Program-made: the position numbers and the translations under genes
Shown here: piece by piece, positions 1 to 36,622 of the stretch
How positions within the stretch are numbered: position 1 is the first letter of the stretch
Layout: every line of letters begins with the position of its first letter
Source of the DNA: a virus
Taxonomy: Duplodnaviria; Heunggongvirae; Uroviricota; Caudoviricetes
Strand: one strand, 5' to 3'
Virus record (IMG/VR): IMGVR_UViG_2531839531_000013
Coordinates: 1 to 36,622 of that record
DNA: 36,622 bases
The notes under the pieces: generated by a model
What the model saw: the letters and a program-made list of their open reading frames with translations, nothing else
The model's database searches: none
Told to the model about the DNA's origin: nothing

Positions 1-39
1 ATGGCGCTCATAAATCTGGTATACTTACCTTTACACATT

Positions 40-402
40 GGGGCTGATTCTGGATTCGACGGGATTTGCGAAACCCAAGGTGCATGCCGAGGGGCGGTTG
101 GCCTCGTAAAAAGCCGCAAAAAATAGTCGCAAACGACGAAAACTACGCTTTAGCAGCTTAATAACCTGCTTAGAGCCCTCTCTCCCTAGCCTCCGCTCTT
201 AGGACGGGGATCAAGAGAGGTCAAACCCAAAAGAGATCGCGTGGAAGCCCTGCCTGGGGTTGAAGCGTTAAAACTTAATCAGGCTAGTTTGTTAGTGGCG
301 TGTCCGTCCGCAGCTGGCAAGCGAATGTAAAGACTGACTAAGCATGTAGTACCGAGGATGTAGGAATTTCGGACGCGGGTTCAACTCCCGCCAGCTCCAC
401 CA
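40..402 (+). ncRNA. ssrA: tmRNA (SsrA), complete 363 nt
   Basis: Begins GGGGCTGATTCTGGATTCGAC and ends GGTTCAACTCCCGCCAGCTCCACCA (tRNA-Ala-like acceptor and T arm). Internal tag ORF GCAAACGACGAAAACTACGCTTTAGCAGCTTAA = ANDENYALAA* at 129-161. Recognised as the E. coli-type ssrA. Confidence 0.97.
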
Positions 403-404
403 AA
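358..404. repeat. attL core: 47-bp direct repeat formed by the ssrA 3' end
   Basis: atgtaggaatttcggacgcgggttcaactcccgccagctccaccaaa is identical to 35131-35177. The flanking bases differ on both sides (g/t upstream, t/a downstream). Confidence 0.92.
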
Positions 405-410
405 TAAATC

Positions 411-441
411 AAGGGGTTACGTGAAAGCGTAGCCCTTTTTT
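411..441 (+). terminator. Phage-supplied replacement terminator for ssrA (possibly bidirectional, also closing the RT gene)
   Basis: Hairpin GGGTTACG-tgaaag-CGTAGCCC (414-435) followed by TTTTTT (436-441), 9 nt after the tmRNA CCA end. On the minus strand the same hairpin is followed by gatttattt. Confidence 0.6.
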
Positions 442-450
442 CTTTAGTAG

Positions 451-469
451 TGGCGGCAAAATGGCGGCA
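451..469 (+). repeat. Putative Int arm-type binding sites (TGGCGGCA x2, 11-bp phasing)
   Basis: tggcggca at 451-458 and 462-469. The same octamer, in the same orientation and with the same 11-bp phasing, recurs next to the other att copy (35018-35036). Confidence 0.4.
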
Positions 470-510
470 GACATTCAGTCAAGCCCAGTTGCTACTACAT
501 GCGATCGCAA

Positions 511-1284
511 TTACAACTTAAAGAGTTTCGCTTGCCCTGGATTAACAGCTTCGACGTAGTTTTTGACCCCTATTCTGTGCGGCTCATAATTGCTTGAATA
601 GAAATCAATCAGGAAGTCACTCATTTTCTGAGATGTGACTTTCATAACTCCCTTACTCAAAGTTAAATTAAACACGCTAATCTTTGACGATGGTGCCTGA
701 GTTTTACTCATGTTGGCTTGATAACCAGATTTACGCATTGCCACTAGTGCTTCGTCGTAAGCCGCTTGTAATTGGGCCAAATCGTTTGACGAGATGATCA
801 CATCATCCATAAACACACTTAGCTTGAGATCATGATGTTTGTTCAATCGGCGTAGTAAGCTACCAAAATAACTTTTATCTAAGCAGAGGGTTGCAAGTAT
901 TGGAGATTGAACAAAACCAAAAGGGAGGACATGCTTATGTGGACTATGGGACAAGTTTCTTACAGTTGAAAATGTTGAGATTTCCCGCGCTTGAGAATAG
1001 GTGAAGTAGCTCTTTAGATCACGGGTGATACGACTACGGCTCGTTGACTGAAAAAATTGTTTAATATCAACAACGGCAAAAAAATCACTTTTTAAGTGTA
1101 ATCTGGCAGCTTTAAGATGCCCACCAGTTCTTAGATGGTAAAAATAGAGTGGCGGAATCCACTTGTTTCTGACATCCTGAAGTATCTTCCCTCCGACTTT
1201 ACGTGCCTCAACGCTTGGGACATAAACCCAAACCCCGGGCTTAATCTCAAATTTATCTTCCCACCTTTGAACTTCTATTGTCAT
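511..1284 (-). CDS. Compact reverse transcriptase-like protein (257 aa), cargo
   Basis: RT palm motifs occur in the correct order: FFAVVDIKQFFQS (motif A, Asp73), LPFGFVQSPILATL (motif B'), and FMDD (motif C, residues 158-161, codons 802-813). There is a retron-like AARLH just upstream of motif A. ATG at 1282-1284, with no own SD; the start lies inside the upstream ORF. Confidence 0.8.
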   Translation of the reverse strand: MTIEVQRWEDKFEIKPGVWVYVPSVEARKVGGKILQDVRNKWIPPLYFYHLRTGGHLKAARLHLKSDFFAVVDIKQFFQSTSRSRITRDLKSYFTYSQAREISTFSTVRNLSHSPHKHVLPFGFVQSPILATLCLDKSYFGSLLRRLNKHHDLKLSVFMDDVIISSNDLAQLQAAYDEALVAMRKSGYQANMSKTQAPSSKISVFNLTLSKGVMKVTSQKMSDFLIDFYSSNYEPHRIGVKNYVEAVNPGQAKLFKL

Positions 1285-1426
1285 GAGTTAAATTGTTGTA
1301 GTTGAAGGCCATGTTAAGAACGGCGTAAACCGCACCAACTAAGCCAACAAACGCGGTTGCGCATTTGAGCATAGCGGTGATCAGTTCAACACGCGCCTTA
1401 ACTAAGCCAAGTTCGTTTGTATCCAT
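1253..1426 (-). CDS. Small predicted membrane protein (57 aa from the second ATG), overlapping the RT start by 32 nt
   Basis: GGAGGA (1434-1439) lies 7 nt upstream of ATG 1426. Product MDTNELGLVKARVELITAMLKCATAFVGLVGAVYAVLNMAFNYNNLTHDNRSSKVGR has one hydrophobic helix (about ITAML...LNMAF) and a polar, basic tail. Confidence 0.45.
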   Translation of the reverse strand: MDTNELGLVKARVELITAMLKCATAFVGLVGAVYAVLNMAFNYNNLTHDNRSSKVGR

Positions 1427-1446
1427 AACTTGTTCCTCCATAGATA

Positions 1447-1623
1447 CCTGACGTCTCTTAGCGCAAGCGCATGGCCCTAACTAAATAAAAAATAACAACC
1501 AGTTAGCCCAGAAAGCTTAACAAGTCGGCGTCCGATTACATGGCAATCAGGTAATCGGTCCGCAGTCGCAAAGCGACAAACTACATATCTACGGAGTGGG
1601 GATAAATCCCCGCTAACGTCAGG
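1447..1623 (-). ncRNA. Candidate structured non-coding RNA upstream of the RT module
   Basis: On the minus strand, CCUGACGU+UAGCG (1623-1611) pairs with CGCUA-agag-ACGUCAGG (1463-1447). This helix encloses hairpins at 1598-1611 (GGGGA/UCCCC), 1565-1577 (GUCGC/GCGAC), 1532-1558 (CCGAUUAC/GUAAUCGG) and 1477-1506 (CUAACU/AGUUAG with an 18-nt U-rich loop). Confidence 0.4.
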
Positions 1624-1687
1624 CATTGTTAATTTAACCTCAACTTATAGAAAAGTATAGTTTTAAATCATGTAGTTATGTCGCCAT

Positions 1688-1906
1688 TTAAATCGGCAAA
1701 CCCACCTGTTTAAATTTATGAGGATGCGGCTGAACCGGATTTGACTCTTTTGGCGTTGCAATCGAACGAACAAAAGTTTCATGGGTAACAAAAGTATGGC
1801 TGCAGTTAATGTTCTGGCACTGGTTGTAACGCTCTTTGGTCAATGAAGATACCTGAAAACTGCTGCGAGTATGGGCGGCACTTCCACACAGTGGGCAAAT
1901 CATCAT
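1688..1906 (-). CDS. ogr: Ogr/B-family zinc-finger late transcription activator
   Basis: MMICPLCGSAAHTRSS...ERYNQCQNINCSHTF is the CxxC...CxxxxC pattern and ~72-aa size of P2 Ogr / 186 B. The start is taken at the internal Met doublet rather than the ORF-track start 1939. Confidence 0.85.
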   Translation of the reverse strand: MMICPLCGSAAHTRSSFQVSSLTKERYNQCQNINCSHTFVTHETFVRSIATPKESNPVQPHPHKFKQVGLPI

Positions 1907-1996
1907 TTTTCGAGTTCTCCCCATTTTTGCTAAATTCACAATAATGATATCGCATTATTCCATTTTTCAAACTTAAAAGTTCTCCATTGTGAAGAA

Positions 1997-3097
1997 TCAT
2001 TCCATTTCGAGATCATCAACCTTCACTTCAAGCTCAAGACTGGTCGTAAAACCATTATCCGGGCTGACGGTATGTGTCAGAGTCGTAATGGTCCATTCCG
2101 CATCATCTATCGGCTGTTTAAAGCCACTGACTTTCACTGGCATTTCCGTGTAGAGATCTGCCCGCCCTTCCGCCAGTTGTAGCGAGAATGACGCAACGCC
2201 GCGTTGCAGGCGTTCCCACTGCATTTTCGCTGCCCGTTCAGCGTTGCTCCGGTTGGCATAAGTGCGATTAAGTACCAGCACGTTTTCATCCGTACCCACC
2301 AGGTAATCGCCCTGCTTCGCTTCCAGCTCTTTCTTCTGCTTCTTAGTCCTGCGCTTACGCTTCACCGTGGTGCTTTCTTTCTTCGCGGGTTCGCGGGTAT
2401 GCAACCAGCTGGCAATTATGCCCGTATAGGCTCCGCGATCTGCCAGGGTAAAGCGGTGACTGTCGCCGTCCTTACGTGTGATAGTGATCACCGGCAGTGG
2501 TTTACCGCTGGCACTTTTGCCCTGTCCCTGCCGGATGAATAACAGATTGCCATTTTTCACCGACGCAATAGCACCGTACTGGCGCGCCAGCCGCATCAGA
2601 AAACTACCGTCACTCTCATTAGTCTGGTCTATATGCTCCACGAGCTTATCCGACAGGTCTTTACCCAGTACCATCTTCAGCTTGTGCCGCGCGGCTATCT
2701 CCTTCACCACTTCCCCAATGGTGGTCTTGTGCCACGATTTTTCACGGCGGGTATTCAGCGTTTCCCGAAAATCAGCACTTCGCGCCCGGATAGTCAGGCG
2801 GTCCGGTGCGCCAGTGTGTTCAATCTCGTCCACCGTGAATGCCCCTTTCGGGAAAAGCGGCTGCCCCTTCCAGCCCAGCGCCAGCGTAATGACCGCACCA
2901 CGGCGCGGCAGCACGATTTTCCCGTCGGCATCGTCCAGCTCCAGATCAAGCTGGTCTGCTTCAAAGCCCCGATTGTCCGTCAGAGTCAGACTCATCAGGC
3001 GGTTATCCAGCACAGTGGTGATATCCCTGCCCTCAATACTGATGCTGAATGCCGGAGTTTTGTTGCTTTTGTTAAGCAGTTCAGAGCTGAAATTCAC
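1997..3097 (-). CDS. D: Tail protein gpD
   Basis: 366 aa. Sits in the P2 gpD position downstream of U and upstream of ogr. The start overlaps the U stop. Confidence 0.88.
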   Translation of the reverse strand: MNFSSELLNKSNKTPAFSISIEGRDITTVLDNRLMSLTLTDNRGFEADQLDLELDDADGKIVLPRRGAVITLALGWKGQPLFPKGAFTVDEIEHTGAPDRLTIRARSADFRETLNTRREKSWHKTTIGEVVKEIAARHKLKMVLGKDLSDKLVEHIDQTNESDGSFLMRLARQYGAIASVKNGNLLFIRQGQGKSASGKPLPVITITRKDGDSHRFTLADRGAYTGIIASWLHTREPAKKESTTVKRKRRTKKQKKELEAKQGDYLVGTDENVLVLNRTYANRSNAERAAKMQWERLQRGVASFSLQLAEGRADLYTEMPVKVSGFKQPIDDAEWTITTLTHTVSPDNGFTTSLELEVKVDDLEME

Positions 3098-8976: not shown

Positions 8977-9543
8977 TCAGGGGGATTCATTGATCTTATT
9001 TGCCGGAAATTTTCTATAAATGGTAGAAACGCCTACATCAAAAATCAGTGCAATACGCTGTCTTGATTCTCCGGCCTCGAGTAAACGCCCAATCTGTGCC
9101 CACTGTTCGGTGGTCAACTTAGGACGGCGTCCACCTACTCTGCCTTTGGCACGAGCTGCAGCCAGCCCTGCCCTGGTACGTTCAACTATCAGTTCGCGTT
9201 CCATTTCAGCCAGGGCACCCATGACATGAAAAAAGAAACGGCCCATTGGGGTACTGGTATCAATACTGTCAGTCAGGCTTCTGAAATTCACACCACGCTG
9301 GCGCAACTCTTCTATCAGCGTAACAAGATGCCGCATACTGCGCCCCAACCTGTCCAGCTTCCAGACAACCAGCGTGTCTCCTGCCGATAGTGTCCTGAGT
9401 AGTTTTTTCAGCCCCGGTCTGTCGGACTTAGTGCCACTGATTTTGTCCTCAAAAATCTGCTCACATCCCGCGCAGTTCAGTGCATTACGTTGCAAATCGG
9501 TGTTCTGGTCATTTGTTGACACGCGTACATAGCCAATAAGCAT
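8977..9543 (-). CDS. Serine DNA invertase (Hin/Gin/Cin/Pin family)
   Basis: MLIGYVRVSTNDQNTDLQRNAL... contains the catalytic Ser motif, and there is a C-terminal HTH. The start is taken at the MLIGY Met (9543), which is preceded by GGGGA. Confidence 0.95.
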   Translation of the reverse strand: MLIGYVRVSTNDQNTDLQRNALNCAGCEQIFEDKISGTKSDRPGLKKLLRTLSAGDTLVVWKLDRLGRSMRHLVTLIEELRQRGVNFRSLTDSIDTSTPMGRFFFHVMGALAEMERELIVERTRAGLAAARAKGRVGGRRPKLTTEQWAQIGRLLEAGESRQRIALIFDVGVSTIYRKFPANKINESP

Positions 9544-9598
9544 GATCATCCCCCTGAATAAAAACCGGAGATGATGCCAGTTAGCTGTTACCTCTGCA

Positions 9599-9624
9599 TT
9601 TTCTTAAACGTTGGTTTGGGAGAA
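9599..9624. repeat. Invertase crossover site (cix/hix-like, 26 bp), left
   Basis: ttttcttaaacgTTggtttgggagaa has reverse complement TTCTCCCAAACC AA CGTTTAAGAAAA. Its half-site and AA core are identical to the site at 11210-11235, in inverted orientation. Confidence 0.8.
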
Positions 9625-9954
9625 GCCAGATATGTCATTCAGCGAGGAGCTAATGCCAATGGTGCGTGGATACGCTGGTCAGATGGTGCAATAGAAGTCT
9701 TTGGAACGGGGGGTTCTAATGATAATGGACTGGCTAAAGTCGTTTATCCAATTGCGCTACCTAAGCTTTCACGTTTTATCAGCATAGCGGAAAGAATAGG
9801 AACGGATTATGGGGGCACATCTAATAATGTTCACGTTTCAATGATCGTGGATGACCAGGTCACTAATACCGGTTTTTATGTCCGCTGCCAGATGTACGAC
9901 GGAACACCATCAACAAGTGCTTTTTCCTGGAGGGTTTATTGTGCGCCTGTTTAA
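9625..9954 (+). CDS. Silent alternative tail-fibre C-terminal cassette (Hv', 109 codons, no start of its own)
   Basis: The frame reads ...FLNV GLGE ARYVIQRGANANG... through the crossover site. H reads ...LTYL GLGE GSALPV... through its own site, so inversion would give an in-frame fusion after H residue 354. Confidence 0.7.
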   Translation, partial: ARYVIQRGANANGAWIRWSDGAIEVFGTGGSNDNGLAKVVYPIALPKLSRFISIAERIGTDYGGTSNNVHVSMIVDDQVTNTGFYVRCQMYDGTPSTSAFSWRVYCAPV

Positions 9955-23521: not shown

Positions 23522-24220
23522 TTATTTGTTTCTTCTTTGTTCACGCCTTGTCTTGGCTTCGATAAGGCGTTGAGGTTCAGTGTAAAGCCGTTCTAAAAAA
23601 AGATAGGTAAAATCTTCAAGATCCTCAGCAGCAGCTTTATCCAAAATACCTTCATGCGCTCCATCATTTCCGTCATCTTTAACGCATTCAGCTAGTTCCC
23701 TTAAAGCTTCAGGCAGTAGATGATTATCAAATAACCACTCCATTCTTAACCCTAGGCTTCTCCTTATTTTTTGCGCAGGCCCTTGCTCCCCATCAGGAAG
23801 AAGTCCTTTTGTGGCATAATCAAGGCAAAGCCTAAACATGGTTGCTGCTGCATTATAACAACCTATAGCCAAACATTTCGCCCCTTCCTCATATGCACTA
23901 TTGATATGCTCAGGTAAGAACTCTGGTGGCTCCTCTACTGCTAAGTCTGCCGGTGATATAGGCCTAACAACCTCTGCAACTTCCTTTAAGCCGAATATTC
24001 CACTTTCCCAATTATAGCCATCTAAAGTTTTATTTTTCGTTAAAGGTCTGCAAAGAAACATTGTCGTTTTATGACACTCTCGGCAAACACAATAGACCTC
24101 GTATTCGTATGTTTTACCCCCGCCCAATGCATTGTAAACCCTAGTGCAATTCAGCCCATTAACATCAAACGCTATTTTTTGTGATCCACATCGTGGACAG
24201 TCATCCACTAACATAACCAT
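23522..24220 (-). CDS. Zinc-ribbon + DUF4145-like domain protein (cargo, 232 aa)
   Basis: The N-terminus CPRCGS...x34...CVCRECHK has four Cys. The C-terminal LGLRMEWLFDNHLLPEALRELAECVKDDGNDGAHEG...AEDLEDFTYLFLERLY matches my memory of the DUF4145 (PF13643) signature. The gene is AT-rich and has a GGGAGGAG SD. Confidence 0.7.
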   Translation of the reverse strand: MVMLVDDCPRCGSQKIAFDVNGLNCTRVYNALGGGKTYEYEVYCVCRECHKTTMFLCRPLTKNKTLDGYNWESGIFGLKEVAEVVRPISPADLAVEEPPEFLPEHINSAYEEGAKCLAIGCYNAAATMFRLCLDYATKGLLPDGEQGPAQKIRRSLGLRMEWLFDNHLLPEALRELAECVKDDGNDGAHEGILDKAAAEDLEDFTYLFLERLYTEPQRLIEAKTRREQRRNK

Positions 24221-24531: not shown

Positions 24532-25251
24532 TTAGCCAAAGCAGAAACCAATATTGCAATTTGAAACTCCACAGTTGTGAAATTGATGTGGACCTACTCT
24601 TAGCTTGTGTTCGTCTCCTACAATCCGAGTCCCCTTAACCAACATATCTAATCTTTCCACAATCAATCTTTCAGGCGCATCAACTTTAATAATTAAACGA
24701 GGACCTTTCCTTTTTTCTATAATAGTTATTCTAGGACCGACAACCTGAACATCCCAATGCCTTGCACTACAAACCCACTCATTCTTAATTAATTCAAGAT
24801 TAACAATACCTTGACTATCGTAAAATTTACCCGAAATAAGAAAAGCATTATTTTCTTTTTCAATGGTTAACAATGGCTCATTTTGAAACATTATTGGTAC
24901 AGTACAGGATTCAAACGTCGCACCACCAAATATTATTGTTGGATGCCTATCAGAAAAGTCCAATATATCGGCCACATTCCCTTTTTGTAAGGCTGCAGGA
25001 GATTCCATTGCTTTAATTATTTTCTCTTTAGAGTAAAGACGTTTCGTTACTTTCGCATGGCACGTAGGACAAAGTAGTGCTATTGCATTTGGAGAGTGCT
25101 CCTTTGCATCAGCGTATGTGGGAATTACATGCTCATACTCAACAATGGGAGAAGCACAAACAACGCAACCGAAGCCACAGCGCTGCCTTACCTCCAGTTT
25201 TACAGGTTCAGGAATTGTTCTAGATAACCCATGCTTGTTAATAGTTGTCAT
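24532..25251 (-). CDS. HNH endonuclease domain protein with unknown C-terminal domain (cargo, 239 aa)
   Basis: CGFGCVVC...VEYEHVIP...HSPNAIALLCPTCHAK carries the HNH/zinc motifs. The C-terminal ~150 aa are beta-rich with no motif I recognise. The gene is AT-rich and occupies the P2 old/tin position. Confidence 0.8.
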   Translation of the reverse strand: MTTINKHGLSRTIPEPVKLEVRQRCGFGCVVCASPIVEYEHVIPTYADAKEHSPNAIALLCPTCHAKVTKRLYSKEKIIKAMESPAALQKGNVADILDFSDRHPTIIFGGATFESCTVPIMFQNEPLLTIEKENNAFLISGKFYDSQGIVNLELIKNEWVCSARHWDVQVVGPRITIIEKRKGPRLIIKVDAPERLIVERLDMLVKGTRIVGDEHKLRVGPHQFHNCGVSNCNIGFCFG

Positions 25252-33201: not shown

Positions 33202-34935
33202 CTACTCAAGAAGATATTCTAACTCATCTTTTATCGGGATAACTTGCTCATAAAGTCGGTGATATGACTTCCCAATTGCGCCTCTGAATTGTATTAACTT
33301 TGGTGGCTTGTTACCTATATTAATAATATGGTCTTGAGCTATACCTGGGTAGGGATCAATAAATACAATTTCAGATATACCTAACTGATAAGCTTTTTTC
33401 GCACACAGCTCACAGGGACTGGCAGTTGTATATAACCTCCCCCCCTGAACGCCAATGCCACCATATTTTGCAAGTTGTAAAAATGCGTTTTCCTCAGCAT
33501 GTAATGCACGTGTATGAACTTGATTACCTTTTTTATCTTTATCAAGATCATTATGTATATCTTTAAAACAATAAGATAAGTTCCTGCCTCTATAAATATC
33601 ACCAGTTTTATCTATCGCCCTAAAATTTAATAGTTTCTCATTAGCTTTAATTCTGAAAGAACTATTATTTCTCTCATAATGACTGTACACTTTTTCATCA
33701 AAGTCGTTCATTAGGCCATCTAGCGATCTCATAGAGCAAGGAATCTGACCGTTGGCGACATCATTCCAACCCACTGATTTTATTGAATTTTCACCATCAG
33801 TTACTACAGCTCCCACCTGTCTAGATATACAACCAGAGTTTAATTTTACCGTATACGCAACTTGCATAACCCTTTCCATTGCAGTAGGTGTTATCAGACC
33901 AGGATGCTTCATCAGTGCGATGTACCACGCTAATTGTGCTTTTAAAATATTGTCATTATCAAATTCATTTTTTGGGTTAAAAATGTGTATATCTGATAGT
34001 TCAATGCATTTAGTTACATTTGGATTAGTGAGATGTTTGTAAGAGTTATCACCTTTACCTGACTCTACAGAATCTATTTCCTCTATCTGCTTTTCAGAAA
34101 ACTTATGTAGTTTCCGCAAATAGTTTGTTCGATGTTCATCTGGGGCATTTATTGACATTAAATGAAATGCAGAATATCTATCCTTAAAAAATTTTGCTTC
34201 ATATGGATTTCTAATAGCATCTATGACAATTAATGCGTTATCTCTTTTGCTTTTTCTTATTAATTTAATAACCCTATTAATAGTTTCCGGCAAATGAAAA
34301 ACAGATTTAGGTATAAACTCTTTATCTTCAAAATCGACTTCAATACGCCCACGGCGTCTAATTGACTTACCTGCTAACTGATAGACTGAAACATATAAAT
34401 TTGAGTTTATCGCATTTAGTTCAGCTTTGAATTCCTTAGTAAATTTTCTAACTAACCTCAAAATTGATATAAATTTATTAATCGTTTTTTCATTAAGCTT
34501 CAATTCACTATTATGATCAAGCAAATTCTCAATTACATTTTTAAATCTTGTTAAAATGAGATTATCTGAAAATACACCAAAAGTTAATACATTATCTAAA
34601 TGCTCTTTACTGATAGATTTATTAGATGATAGAATAAACTCAGAAGCTTCTTCAACTGTTAACATCAAAAGATACGCTGAGATTAGGTCACTCACCTTAA
34701 TTGAGTAAAAATTTTCCCAGTGATTTTCTGCGAATTTTTTAACTATATTATAACGATGGACATCCAATCCCTTGTAAAAACCCTGTAATTTACTTACATC
34801 AGGGAAGACTGTTTTTTCGTTTTCAAGAATATTAGCTGTTGTTGTGCAACCAGAACCAGTTCGACCTGTCAAACCGACTAAAATAAACTGCCCATTTTCA
34901 AGGAAAAGCTCACTAACGAATTTTTTTTCTTTCAT
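33202..34935 (-). CDS. P-loop kinase-like + cytidine/dCMP deaminase fusion (dCTP-deaminase type anti-phage protein)
   Basis: N-terminal Walker A GLTGRTGSGCTT. C-terminal zinc-deaminase motifs RQVGAVV, HAEENA and PCELCAKK. The region is very AT-rich (for example, 34441-34500 has 11 G/C in 60 nt). ATG 34935 is preferred over GTG 34938. Confidence 0.85.
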   Translation of the reverse strand: MKEKKFVSELFLENGQFILVGLTGRTGSGCTTTANILENEKTVFPDVSKLQGFYKGLDVHRYNIVKKFAENHWENFYSIKVSDLISAYLLMLTVEEASEFILSSNKSISKEHLDNVLTFGVFSDNLILTRFKNVIENLLDHNSELKLNEKTINKFISILRLVRKFTKEFKAELNAINSNLYVSVYQLAGKSIRRRGRIEVDFEDKEFIPKSVFHLPETINRVIKLIRKSKRDNALIVIDAIRNPYEAKFFKDRYSAFHLMSINAPDEHRTNYLRKLHKFSEKQIEEIDSVESGKGDNSYKHLTNPNVTKCIELSDIHIFNPKNEFDNDNILKAQLAWYIALMKHPGLITPTAMERVMQVAYTVKLNSGCISRQVGAVVTDGENSIKSVGWNDVANGQIPCSMRSLDGLMNDFDEKVYSHYERNNSSFRIKANEKLLNFRAIDKTGDIYRGRNLSYCFKDIHNDLDKDKKGNQVHTRALHAEENAFLQLAKYGGIGVQGGRLYTTASPCELCAKKAYQLGISEIVFIDPYPGIAQDHIINIGNKPPKLIQFRGAIGKSYHRLYEQVIPIKDELEYLLE

Positions 34936-35017
34936 CACGTCCCACTTATGAATGTAAGAATATTCAACATATTAATTATAATTTATTAACTCATTTTGTT
35001 CTAGATACTTGATGTAA

Positions 35018-35380: not shown

Positions 35381-36622
35381 ATGGCAAGACAAACCAAACC
35401 TCTATCCGTTAAAGAAATAGAATCAGCCAAACCCAAGGAGGCGGACTACGTTCTCTATGATGGCGATGGCCTTGAGCTACTCATTAAATCCAGCGGGAGT
35501 AAAATCTGGCAGTTTCGCTACATTCGCCCTGTCACCAAGAAACGAGCAAAGAAGAGCATAGGCTCCTACCCGTCAGTTACCCTTGCCGATGCCAGAAACT
35601 ACCGTGCAGAGTCCCGCTCACTACTGGCTAAACAGATCGATCCGCAGGAACATCAGCAAGAACAATTGCGCAGTTCGCTGGAAGCCAAAACCAACACTTT
35701 CCAACTCGTAGCTGAACGTTGGTGGAATGTGAAGAAAGCCAGTGTGACAGAGGACTATGCGGAAGATATCTGGCGCTCTCTTGAAAGAGACGTCTTTCCT
35801 GCGATTGGCGACGTTAGCGTTACAGATATTAAAGCTCATACACTGGTTCAGGCCGTACAACCGGTTCAGGCCAGAGGAGCACTGGAAACTGTTCGTCGCC
35901 TGTGCCAACGTATTAATGAGGTCATGATCTATGCCCAGAACACAGGGCTGATTGATGCTGTTCCCAGCGTTAATATCGGTAAAGCCTTCGAGAAGCCTCA
36001 GAAAAAGAACATGCCCAGCATTCGACCGGATCAGCTACCTCAGTTAATGCAGACGATGCGAACAGCCAGCATTAGCCTTTCCACACGCTGCCTGTTCATG
36101 TGGCAACTTCTTACTATTACCCGCCCTGCCGAAGCGGCTGAAGCTCTCTGGGAAGAGGTAGACATAGAAGCGCGAGAGTGGAAGATTCCTGCAGCACGCA
36201 TGAAAATGAACCGCGACCATACTGTTCCATTGTCAGATGAAGCAATTGCGATACTAGAGATGATGAAGCCGTTAAGTGGAAATCGAGAATTTATCTTTCC
36301 CAGCCGCATCAAGCCAAACCAGCCGATGAACAGTCAGACCGTAAACGCATCGCTAAAACGCGCAGGTTTTGGTGGGGTGCTCGTTTCACACGGCCTGCGA
36401 TCTATCGCCAGTACAGCCCTTAATGAGCAGGGATTTCCACCTGATGTTATTGAGGCTGCACTTGCTCATGTGGATAAGAATGAGGTTCGTCGTGCGTATA
36501 ACCGTAGTGATTATCTTGAGCAGCGACGGCCTATGATGCAGTGGTGGGCTGATTTTGTGATGGCTGCAGATCACGGTAGTATGATTGAAGGAGGGATAAA
36601 GGCAATGCGGTTAGTTGGATGA
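35381..36622 (+). CDS. intA: P4-family tyrosine integrase (CP4-57 IntA-like)
   Basis: 413 aa. MARQTKPL...LYDGDGL.LLIKSSGSK.WQFRY N-terminus, with TITRPAEAA, HGLRSIAST and AHVDKNEVRRAYNRSDY catalytic motifs. Closely resembles K-12 IntA as I remember it. Confidence 0.93.
   Translation: MARQTKPLSVKEIESAKPKEADYVLYDGDGLELLIKSSGSKIWQFRYIRPVTKKRAKKSIGSYPSVTLADARNYRAESRSLLAKQIDPQEHQQEQLRSSLEAKTNTFQLVAERWWNVKKASVTEDYAEDIWRSLERDVFPAIGDVSVTDIKAHTLVQAVQPVQARGALETVRRLCQRINEVMIYAQNTGLIDAVPSVNIGKAFEKPQKKNMPSIRPDQLPQLMQTMRTASISLSTRCLFMWQLLTITRPAEAAEALWEEVDIEAREWKIPAARMKMNRDHTVPLSDEAIAILEMMKPLSGNREFIFPSRIKPNQPMNSQTVNASLKRAGFGGVLVSHGLRSIASTALNEQGFPPDVIEAALAHVDKNEVRRAYNRSDYLEQRRPMMQWWADFVMAADHGSMIEGGIKAMRLVG

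Follow-up and report, generated by a model that had tools for sequence, protein, structure and literature searches.

In Retron-Vpa2, a Type VI retron, the msr-msd region and the message of a small protein (SP) form one hybrid RNA (hyRNA); the ribosome-binding site (RBS) of SP is hidden in this hyRNA and SP translation needs the multicopy single-stranded DNA (msDNA) (10.1101/2025.10.22.683967). In Retron-Sen3 and the cl2075 lineage, the RBS is located in the basal stem, and pairing between the inverted repeats IR1 and IR2 ties the non-coding RNA (ncRNA) to the SP region (10.64898/2026.04.27.721009). Retron-Sen3, which also belongs to Type VI, makes single-stranded DNA (ssDNA) constitutively. 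Approximately 78% of Type VI retrons have a gene for a Cro/C1-type helix-turn-helix (HTH) protein between the SP and reverse transcriptase (RT) genes. Here we describe a leader RNA, an SP gene and an RT gene that follow one another on the minus strand of a 36,622-nucleotide sequence from a virus of the Caudoviricetes (IMG/VR record IMGVR_UViG_2531839531_000013, positions 1 to 36,622; hereafter the window). The leader, with which the SP-RT operon begins, was found to be a conserved, covarying structured RNA, and sequence comparison suggests that the family is a relative of the Type VI "hybrid RNA" retrons for which no published description was found. A literature search on this RT (WP_000151541), on hyRNA and on new or unclassified retron types returned nothing on the family; its coverage was incomplete and the result is absence of evidence only. 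We hold with moderate confidence that the leader is a retron-like hybrid RNA, at once a substrate of the RT and a translational lock on a membrane-toxin-like SP, carried on one transcript with the RT. Unless a strand is given, all features below are on the minus strand and are numbered from the first nucleotide of the window.

Folding of a 191-nt stretch of the leader gave an energy of -67.7 kcal/mol, compared to -51.2 ± 4.0 kcal/mol for dinucleotide shuffles (z = -4.1), and none of 200 shuffles folded as well; the local structure therefore exceeded what composition would give. Since folding alone did not settle which helices are real, the helices were judged by comparing loci. A word-indexed search for the RT family gave 72 matches, and an exhaustive profile search gave 281 cluster representatives (E ≤ 1e-30), a lineage of approximately 280 clusters at 50% identity in Alpha-, Beta- and Gammaproteobacteria. 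When one genome was scanned for each species, 129 loci were confirmed; the 80 retained for comparison came from the same three classes and a few other lineages. A covariance model was built from 35 loci, with the window excluded. It found the window element at 1424-1628 (52.9 bits, E = 3e-8) and gave 60 matches in 81 sources, each on the coding strand directly upstream of SP-RT. In the alignment on this model, 91.7% of cells were paired, compared to 30-41% when the partners were slid by 1-3 columns, and changes on both sides were counted over 58 distinct sequences at 15 of the 24 modelled leader pairs, including 7 of 8 in the closing helix (P0) and 4 of 6 in the first hairpin (P1). This alignment was fitted to the model and hence favours the structure; the covariation of P0 was visible in the raw sequences too. 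The leader accompanied this RT family down to approximately 35% RT identity.

A common architecture was evident in the 300 nt upstream of SP. It consisted of the 5' arm of P0 (7-12 nt), UAG, P1, a pyrimidine linker, hairpin P2, one or more variable hairpins (P3), the motifs UU[GA]GUU and CAU, hairpin P4 (GCGC-loop-GCGC), UAGG with 2-3 further nt, and the 3' arm of P0, with the Shine-Dalgarno (SD) sequence and AUG of SP within 25-35 nt after that arm. The complementary segments listed in an initial annotation, which had been made from the window sequence, were all present where it had placed them, and the compensatory changes that it had named as the check on its structure were abundant in the leader helices. 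It had also proposed a scan with the Rfam retron msr model. Rfam release 15 gave no match to a retron or any other family in the leader region when positions 1-3000 were searched at E ≤ 10, and the whole window at gathering thresholds gave the tmRNA alone; it was the covariance model of the family itself that matched the leader.

The 5' arm of P0, CCUGACGU (1616-1623), resembles a retron a2 repeat and the 3' arm, ACGUCAGG (1447-1454), an a1 repeat, and the two pair as 1623-1616 with 1454-1447. In eight aligned close relatives of the window leader, P0 was exactly the 8-bp helix CCUGACGU:ACGUCAGG, with flanking bases that varied. Across the family the arms differed widely, as in UCCCGGC/GCCGGGA, CCUUGGC/GCCAAGG and CCCCAGC/GCUGGGG. 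Of the 13-bp closing helix that had been proposed initially, the 8-bp part was upheld by this covariation and the 5-bp extension UAGCG:CGCUA was not, as its 3' arm falls inside the conserved P4. That extension would use bases of P4 and of the invariant UAG, and G1611, one of its bases, had also been assigned to the first hairpin. The bases of the extension were all invariant in the close relatives, and a 3-bp UAG:CUA contact may form.

Directly 3' of the 5' arm of P0 lies UAG (1613-1615), of which the T, A and G columns were invariant in a 35-sequence alignment (A2). Its context was UUAGC in the window and [A/G/U]UAGG in other loci. By analogy with retrons, the G of UAG is the candidate position of the branching G; UUAGC after the 5' arm is presumably the branching-G context of Ec86, as the initial annotation had suggested. 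The invariant UAG is faced by the junction UAAGAG (1455-1460), just before the 3' arm of P0, where the family has UAGG and 2-3 nt and where GCGCUAGG was conserved in A2. This conserved UAGG/UAAG may correspond, on the same analogy, to the "opposing G" of retrons.

Two long-range pairings connected the leader to SP. The first was formed by the pyrimidine linker between P1 and P2, CUCCGUAGAUA (1586-1596), an anti-SD sequence that pairs with UAUCUAUGGAG (1436-1446), a segment that includes the SP SD sequence GGAGG (1439-1435). The helix has 11 bp with one G-U pair (1596-1586 with 1446-1436), and since P0 encloses the linker but not the SD, the pairing is a pseudoknot (PK). The positions flanking the core covaried (CCUCAUUGAA/UUCAAUGAGG, CCUUAGAUC/GAUCUAAGG and CUCUCUGUAC/GUAUAGAGAG), and one pair flipped between U:A and A:U in close relatives. 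The mean pairing score was 19.6 with the cognate partner, compared to 14.1 with the tails of unrelated loci (Wilcoxon p = 3e-11); in 30 of 50 loci the cognate partner outscored at least 95% of the non-cognate ones. The pairing was not seen in the most divergent, mainly alphaproteobacterial, loci.

The second pairing (LR) involved UAGUUAGGGCCAUG (1470-1483), which is located just 5' of P4 and holds the family motif UU[GA]GUU ... CAU. A local partner for the UUGGUU motif was sought and none was found; codons of SP were then identified as the partner. The 3' strand, CAUGGCCUUCAACUA (1299-1313), lies inside SP and encodes N-M-A-F-N-Y, and the helix consists of UAGUUAGGGCCAUG (1483-1470) paired with CAUGGCCUU(C)AACUA (1313-1299), a total of 14 bp with one bulged C. 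This pairing explains the conservation of UUGGUU and CAU. LR recurred in nearly all loci with differing sequences, such as UUGGUUGAUGCCAUGU/ACAUGGCGAUUAACUA, UUGGUUGGUGAUCU/AGGUCACCAACUA and AGUUGACGACC/GGUCGUCAACU. The mean duplex energy was -20.1 kcal/mol for cognate partners, compared to -16.0 kcal/mol for non-cognate partners and -14.9 kcal/mol for shuffled sequences (Wilcoxon p = 1e-10). Covariation extended to synonymous sites: the asparagine codon AAC occurred with UU[GA]GUU in 39 of 39 loci, and AAU with UU[GA]AUU in 8 of 8. Of the 7 nt beside the motif, 65.5% were paired, compared to 52.9% with permuted partners, and none of 2,000 permutations reached the observed value. PK and LR were thus both specific to their cognate partners and both covaried.

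The initial annotation had suggested that the structure could gate translation of the small open reading frame (ORF) through the closing helix, the 3' strand of which ends near the SD. Judged from the sequences, SP translation is probably gated by the leader, and the route would be PK, together with LR into SP, instead of the closing helix. The leader and SP would occupy one transcript.

In the window, SP is a protein of 57 aa (1253-1426; RefSeq hypothetical protein WP_000380485.1), the gene of which overlaps the start of the RT gene by 32 nt. Members of the SP family were 39-77 aa long (median 48.5) and were nearly always encoded before the RT, usually overlapping its start. The layout comprised a basic N-terminus, a hydrophobic helix of approximately 25 aa, an invariant Asn-Tyr (NY) and a short polar tail; the NY pair was invariant in the SPs of more than 60 loci, and the best 19-aa hydropathy was at least 1.6 in 46 of 64 SPs. 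No match was found for SP in Pfam, PADLOC, NCBIfam or PHROGs. These features give SP the appearance of a small membrane toxin. An in-frame AUG at 1441, which overlaps the SD (AUGGAGG) inside the PK strand, would make SP 62 aa long; the AUG at 1426 was favoured by RefSeq and by the family alignment.

In the main rival explanation, the sole function of the leader would be to repress in cis, through fold-back inhibition as in hok or tisB mRNA, the translation of a small membrane toxin, with an RT that may bind the leader or be co-regulated with it and with no template, primer or msDNA involved. Sequestration of an SD and pairing into an ORF are regulatory motifs that have no need of reverse transcription, SP resembles a type I toxin (approximately 48 aa, one hydrophobic helix), and a census cited by Garcia-Rodriguez et al. 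includes six Type VI retrons without detectable msDNA. We nevertheless consider a simple repressor unlikely. The leader always travelled with this RT family even where RT identity fell to approximately 35%; P0 with the invariant UAG at the 5' end, and the conserved P1 and P2, exceed what is needed to mask an SD; and the intact catalytic YxDD motif of the RT implies a template, the leader being the sole conserved structured RNA nearby.

The RT gene (511-1284) encodes a protein of 257 aa with the catalytic motif FMDD (Pfam RVT_1, 77 bits). The family is compact, its members having approximately 255 aa, and D160 and D161 of YxDD were invariant. When the family profile was compared to the PDB, the top matches were all retron RTs, with Ec86 first (E = 4e-12, over 12-248 of 252 positions). 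An AlphaFold model of the RT (pLDDT 94.7) predicted a complete palm-fingers-thumb fold; the top 17 PDB matches of this model in Foldseek were retron RTs (TM approximately 0.73), and the G2L4, DRT9, group II intron and diversity-generating retroelement enzymes scored lower. PADLOC gave RT_VI at 62.7 bits (E = 8e-18), I-B at 54.5 and IX at 51.7 for the window RT, with II-A similar. The 26 sampled family members matched all PADLOC retron-type models weakly and about equally, with best E values of 1.9e-24 (VI), 3.7e-22 (I-B) and 2.3e-21 (IX). The NCBIfam retron models gave 49.5 bits against a cut-off of 235. Membership of the UG, Abi and DRT groups found no support either: the best match was RT_UG33 at 33 bits, Drt3a reached 17.6 against a cut-off of 200, and no extra domain was present.

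These properties bear on two further explanations. In the first, classical retron logic would apply: msDNA would be made constitutively from the leader as the antitoxin of SP, and interference of a phage with the msDNA would free SP. The retron-like RT fold, the a1/a2-like helix, the UAG and the adjoining effector gene are all compatible with this scheme, as is the constitutive ssDNA of Retron-Sen3. On the other side, SP is a hydrophobic peptide of 48 aa on which no DNA-binding surface is apparent, the covariation of the SD lock speaks for translational control, and there is no antitoxin-type partner such as an HTH protein at the locus; we regard this scheme as quite unlikely. In the second explanation, SP would act as an RT subunit, such as a protein primer working through the invariant Tyr of NY, and the leader would be template and autoregulatory site. 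AbiK and DRT9 are protein-primed enzymes. The invariance of Asn-Tyr in more than 60 SPs would fit such a role, as would the overlap of the SP and RT genes, which suggests stoichiometric co-translation, and the unusually small size of the RT. The complete and confidently predicted RT fold is, against this, nearest to that of retron RTs, enzymes primed by RNA; a single hydrophobic helix makes up most of SP, which showed no homology to known priming domains. A priming subunit is therefore improbable, and more so than constitutive msDNA acting as an antitoxin.

If the leader is the hybrid RNA proposed here, PK and LR would keep SP translation off in the resting state. Bound to the leader, the RT would be primed, in the manner of retrons, by the G of UAG where it adjoins P0; copying would run leftwards, beginning at the 3' arm of P0 and passing through P4, the LR strand, P3 and P2 towards the linker. 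The complementary DNA (cDNA), or removal of the template by RNase H, would displace the SP-coding strand first and the SD second. SP would then be produced and the infected cell would stop growing, so that the infection is aborted. In this scheme the point at which transcription starts is predicted from the -10 box; that the leader is reverse-transcribed, that branching occurs at UAG, that SP is toxic and that the module serves in phage defence are put forward by analogy with retrons and with Type VI. In its widest form, the proposal is that of a widespread two-gene system, previously unclassified, in which a leader accompanies genes for a membrane toxin of 40-60 aa and an RT of 255 aa and which lacks a protein antitoxin. 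One RNA would be both the template-primer of the RT and the mRNA of the toxin, and would carry two coevolving locks, one of them in the codons of the toxin's invariant motif, that are opened by reverse transcription of the leader during phage infection. We offer this wider form only tentatively, and think it doubtful that every part of it holds.

Several points weigh against the hybrid RNA. In the alignment to Ec86, the VTG motif of retron RTs was replaced by VFN, with an invariant F205 and N206, and NAxxH lacked its Asn, with a nearly invariant A59 and an invariant H63 retained; the Ec86 segment SILNNATPH aligned with GGHvaalklH in the RT family. By PADLOC model scores the RT fitted none of the 13 retron types. 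The weak and nearly equal type matches, VFN and the partial NAxxH together indicate an RT that is retron-like in sequence and predicted fold and lies outside the 13 described types. The leader contained no long msd-type stem-loop, and P3 was short. Direct repeats like those of Vpa2 were seen in some lineages only, and neither the window nor most of the loci had them. Minimum-free-energy folding of the full transcript gave mixed alternative pairings; such folds cannot display a pseudoknot. The statistical tests counted related loci as independent, with no correction for shared ancestry. If translation of the RT is coupled to that of SP, complete locking of SP would leave the cell short of RT as well.

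The hairpins enclosed by P0 were conserved to differing degrees. P1, GGGGA-UUUA-UCCCC (1598-1611), had a counterpart at this site in all family members and was kept in close relatives with register shifts. P2, GUCGC-UUU-GCGAC (1565-1577), has the family consensus GUCAC-nnn-GUGAY; 98.6% of its cells were paired, with AU to GC and UA to CG changes. P3, CCGAUUAC-11 nt-GUAAUCGG (1532-1558), varied in length and sequence through the family and had three both-side pair changes among the eight close relatives, its upper stem being AUUAC:GUAAU in the window and AUGC:GCAU in the relatives. P4, GCGC-UU-GCGC (1461-1470), was nearly invariant in most members (97.4% paired) and covaried in distant ones, as UGCC/GGCA, GCAC/GUGC and CCCGUG/CACGGG. 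Of the four hairpins that had been predicted within the closing helix, those at 1611-1598, 1577-1565 and 1558-1532 were thus kept or compensated in relatives. The fourth, CUAACU (1506-1501):AGUUAG (1482-1477), was rejected, with two of its six pairs mismatched and a third at an alignment gap in six to seven of the eight close relatives; its 3' arm is part of LR and so has another partner. As neither this hairpin nor its U-rich loop was conserved, the suggestion that a long U-rich loop would template an A-rich cDNA has no comparative support.

The 5' arm of this fourth hairpin, the U-rich run and a local hairpin predicted for the window sequence only make up a variable spacer (1484-1531), where CUGGGCUUA was present in 2-4 tandem copies in the close relatives. 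In one locus (L088, 944-980), the 9-nt unit CTGGGCTTA was perfectly repeated in tandem between P3 and UUAGUU (4.1 copies), as it also was in L082, L087, L002 and L085. The site corresponds to approximately 1521-1487 of the window, which has about one degenerate copy to the 2-4 copies of close relatives. This part of the RNA appears to tolerate, or perhaps to generate, changes in length. Separately, the anti-SD linker was found exactly repeated, over 7-9 nt, inside P3 in three Xanthomonas loci (L036, L041 and L064) and four Paraburkholderia loci (L013, L016, L023 and L025), for example as CUCUAUUCG or as CAUUGCG/CAUUCCG, and the repeat changed in step between relatives. It recalls the 7-nt direct repeats proposed for msDNA-dependent unlocking in Retron-Vpa2. 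The longest word shared by the linker and P3 had a mean length of 5.6, compared to 4.8 in shuffles.

Upstream of P0, a predicted -10 box, TAAATT (1631-1636), matched the consensus and was kept as TAAATT, TAAGTT, TAATGT or TAGATT in close relatives. The distance from the end of an upstream TANNNT hexamer to the U of UAG was exactly 16-17 nt in 40 of 52 loci, and this fixed distance places the predicted start of transcription at the 5' end of P0, near 1625. The promoter that had been proposed earlier, ATGATT with TATAAG, did not fare well: TATAAG (1649-1644) lies 13 nt upstream of the family TANNNT position, and a promoter scan did not report the proposed pair.

Coding conservation of a 49-codon ORF (1477-1626) across the element had been named initially as an observation that would count against a structured RNA. 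An ATG-initiated frame of that length does exist, and the region could in principle encode it, with the structure incidental. Among 60 homologues, any given frame was open in 10 at most and the longest ORF had a median length of 24.5 codons, so that the ORF is not a gene by this test; conservation tracked base pairs rather than codons, and RefSeq annotates no gene there. We attach negligible probability to a coding function.

The locus is situated at one end of a prophage. In this E. coli window the tmRNA gene (ssrA) occupies 40-402 on the plus strand and is adjoined by a P2/186-like prophage, the genes of which run on the minus strand. Their order is gpD (1997-3097), a gene for an Ogr/Delta zinc-finger protein (1688-1939), the leader, SP and the RT, which stops right before ssrA. 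No HTH gene was found, as an ORF or as a Pfam match, at this locus or in the homologous loci inspected. Of 5,426 complete E. coli genomes, 28 contained the 1.3-kb leader-SP-RT module at a coverage of at least 80%, and in 13 genomes of Klebsiella phages it occupied the right end, with 99% protein identity. The module is thus carried on P2-like phages, where its position is the cargo end of the prophage, and it was found in non-P2 contexts as well. Of six extra close relatives that were retrieved, four adjoined ogr in P2-like prophages and two lay elsewhere, which indicates that the module moves as a unit.

On a Pectobacterium-related contig (L083, 2282-3087), RelB/ParE-type toxin-antitoxin (TA) genes followed leader-SP-RT directly, with no prophage end, so that the module also occupies non-P2 defence or TA neighbourhoods. 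Other cargo was apparent in the window. Just beyond the integrase end of the prophage, a 578-aa protein (33202-34938) scored 483.6 bits against the PADLOC defence model for dCTPase (dCTP deaminase) and had a Pfam cytidine/deoxycytidylate deaminase domain; it is followed by a second phage-type integrase (35381-36622, plus strand), which suggests a further small defence island beside the prophage. Two cargo genes (23522-24220 and 24532-25251) sit between the portal/terminase block and replication gene A; one encodes a DUF4145 protein with a weak PADLOC match to PD-T7-4 (26 bits) and the other a protein with an HNH endonuclease domain. This site appears to be the P2-like defence hotspot reported by Rousset et al. 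(2022). A resolvase-type DNA invertase gene (8977-9549) adjoins a fragment resembling a tail-fibre C-terminus (9571-9954, plus strand), probably a tail-fibre inversion switch.

If the hybrid RNA reading is correct, the hyRNA logic of Type VI retrons applies as well to another RT lineage, a far simpler one, in which RNA structure alone would have to silence the toxin since there is no HTH antitoxin. With leader-SP-RT, the way in which translation is turned on by cDNA synthesis could then be tested in a minimal setting, and the ogr-attR end of P2-like prophages would be a further cargo site for defence genes. In LR, the same nucleotides are constrained both by an RNA helix and by a protein motif. 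The lineage would also offer a retron-type RT of very small size (approximately 255 aa) for which the RNA partner is defined, and the smallness of the system makes it well suited to experiments. Annotation pipelines label SP "hypothetical protein" and the RT, as in RefSeq, "reverse transcriptase domain-containing protein", and nothing more.

Among known systems, the mRNAs of type I TA loci such as hok/sok and tisB/istR inhibit the synthesis of a small single-helix hydrophobic protein by folding back. The leader resembles them in that the mRNA would hide its own ribosome site by long-range intramolecular pairing. It differs in the lack of an evident antisense RNA gene, in its invariable linkage to an RT and in its retron-like features.

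The likeness to classical retrons such as Ec86 (Eco1) lies in the a2/a1-type helix, with its 5' arm at the predicted transcript start and small hairpins after it, and in the RT, for which Ec86 was the closest in sequence and retron RTs the closest in fold. The retron msr-msd layout that had been recognised initially was supported as an inverted repeat, marked by P0 covariation, that encloses hairpins upstream of an RT, with a probable start at its 5' arm and a -10 box at a fixed distance; assignment to a described retron type was not supported. The RT here differs from that of Ec86 in being approximately 60 aa shorter at the N-terminus and in having VFN for VTG and AAxxH for NAxxH, and the leader, in contrast to that of classical retrons, is fused to the mRNA of an effector.

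The Type VI retrons (Vpa2, Eco12 and Sen3) came closer. By PADLOC score, the RT did not fall in their RT clade (clade 3): RT_VI was nominally the best PADLOC match, at a score that is not family-level and is about that for I-B, IX and II-A, and the lineage is a different one. The Type VI order of ncRNA, SP, HTH and RT is not preserved either, as the HTH gene is absent and SP overlaps the start of the RT. Shared with these retrons are a leader with a terminal inverted repeat directly upstream of a gene for a small, helical, hydrophobic SP, which in turn precedes a short retron-type RT; carriage on mobile elements; and the two features of a hybrid RNA, that is, an SP ribosome site sequestered in the leader and a long-range inverted repeat connecting the leader with the region of SP. 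The means by which these are achieved are distinct, in that the SD is masked here by a pseudoknot with an internal linker, and the distal arm of LR is located in the SP codons of the NY motif rather than downstream of the stop codon.

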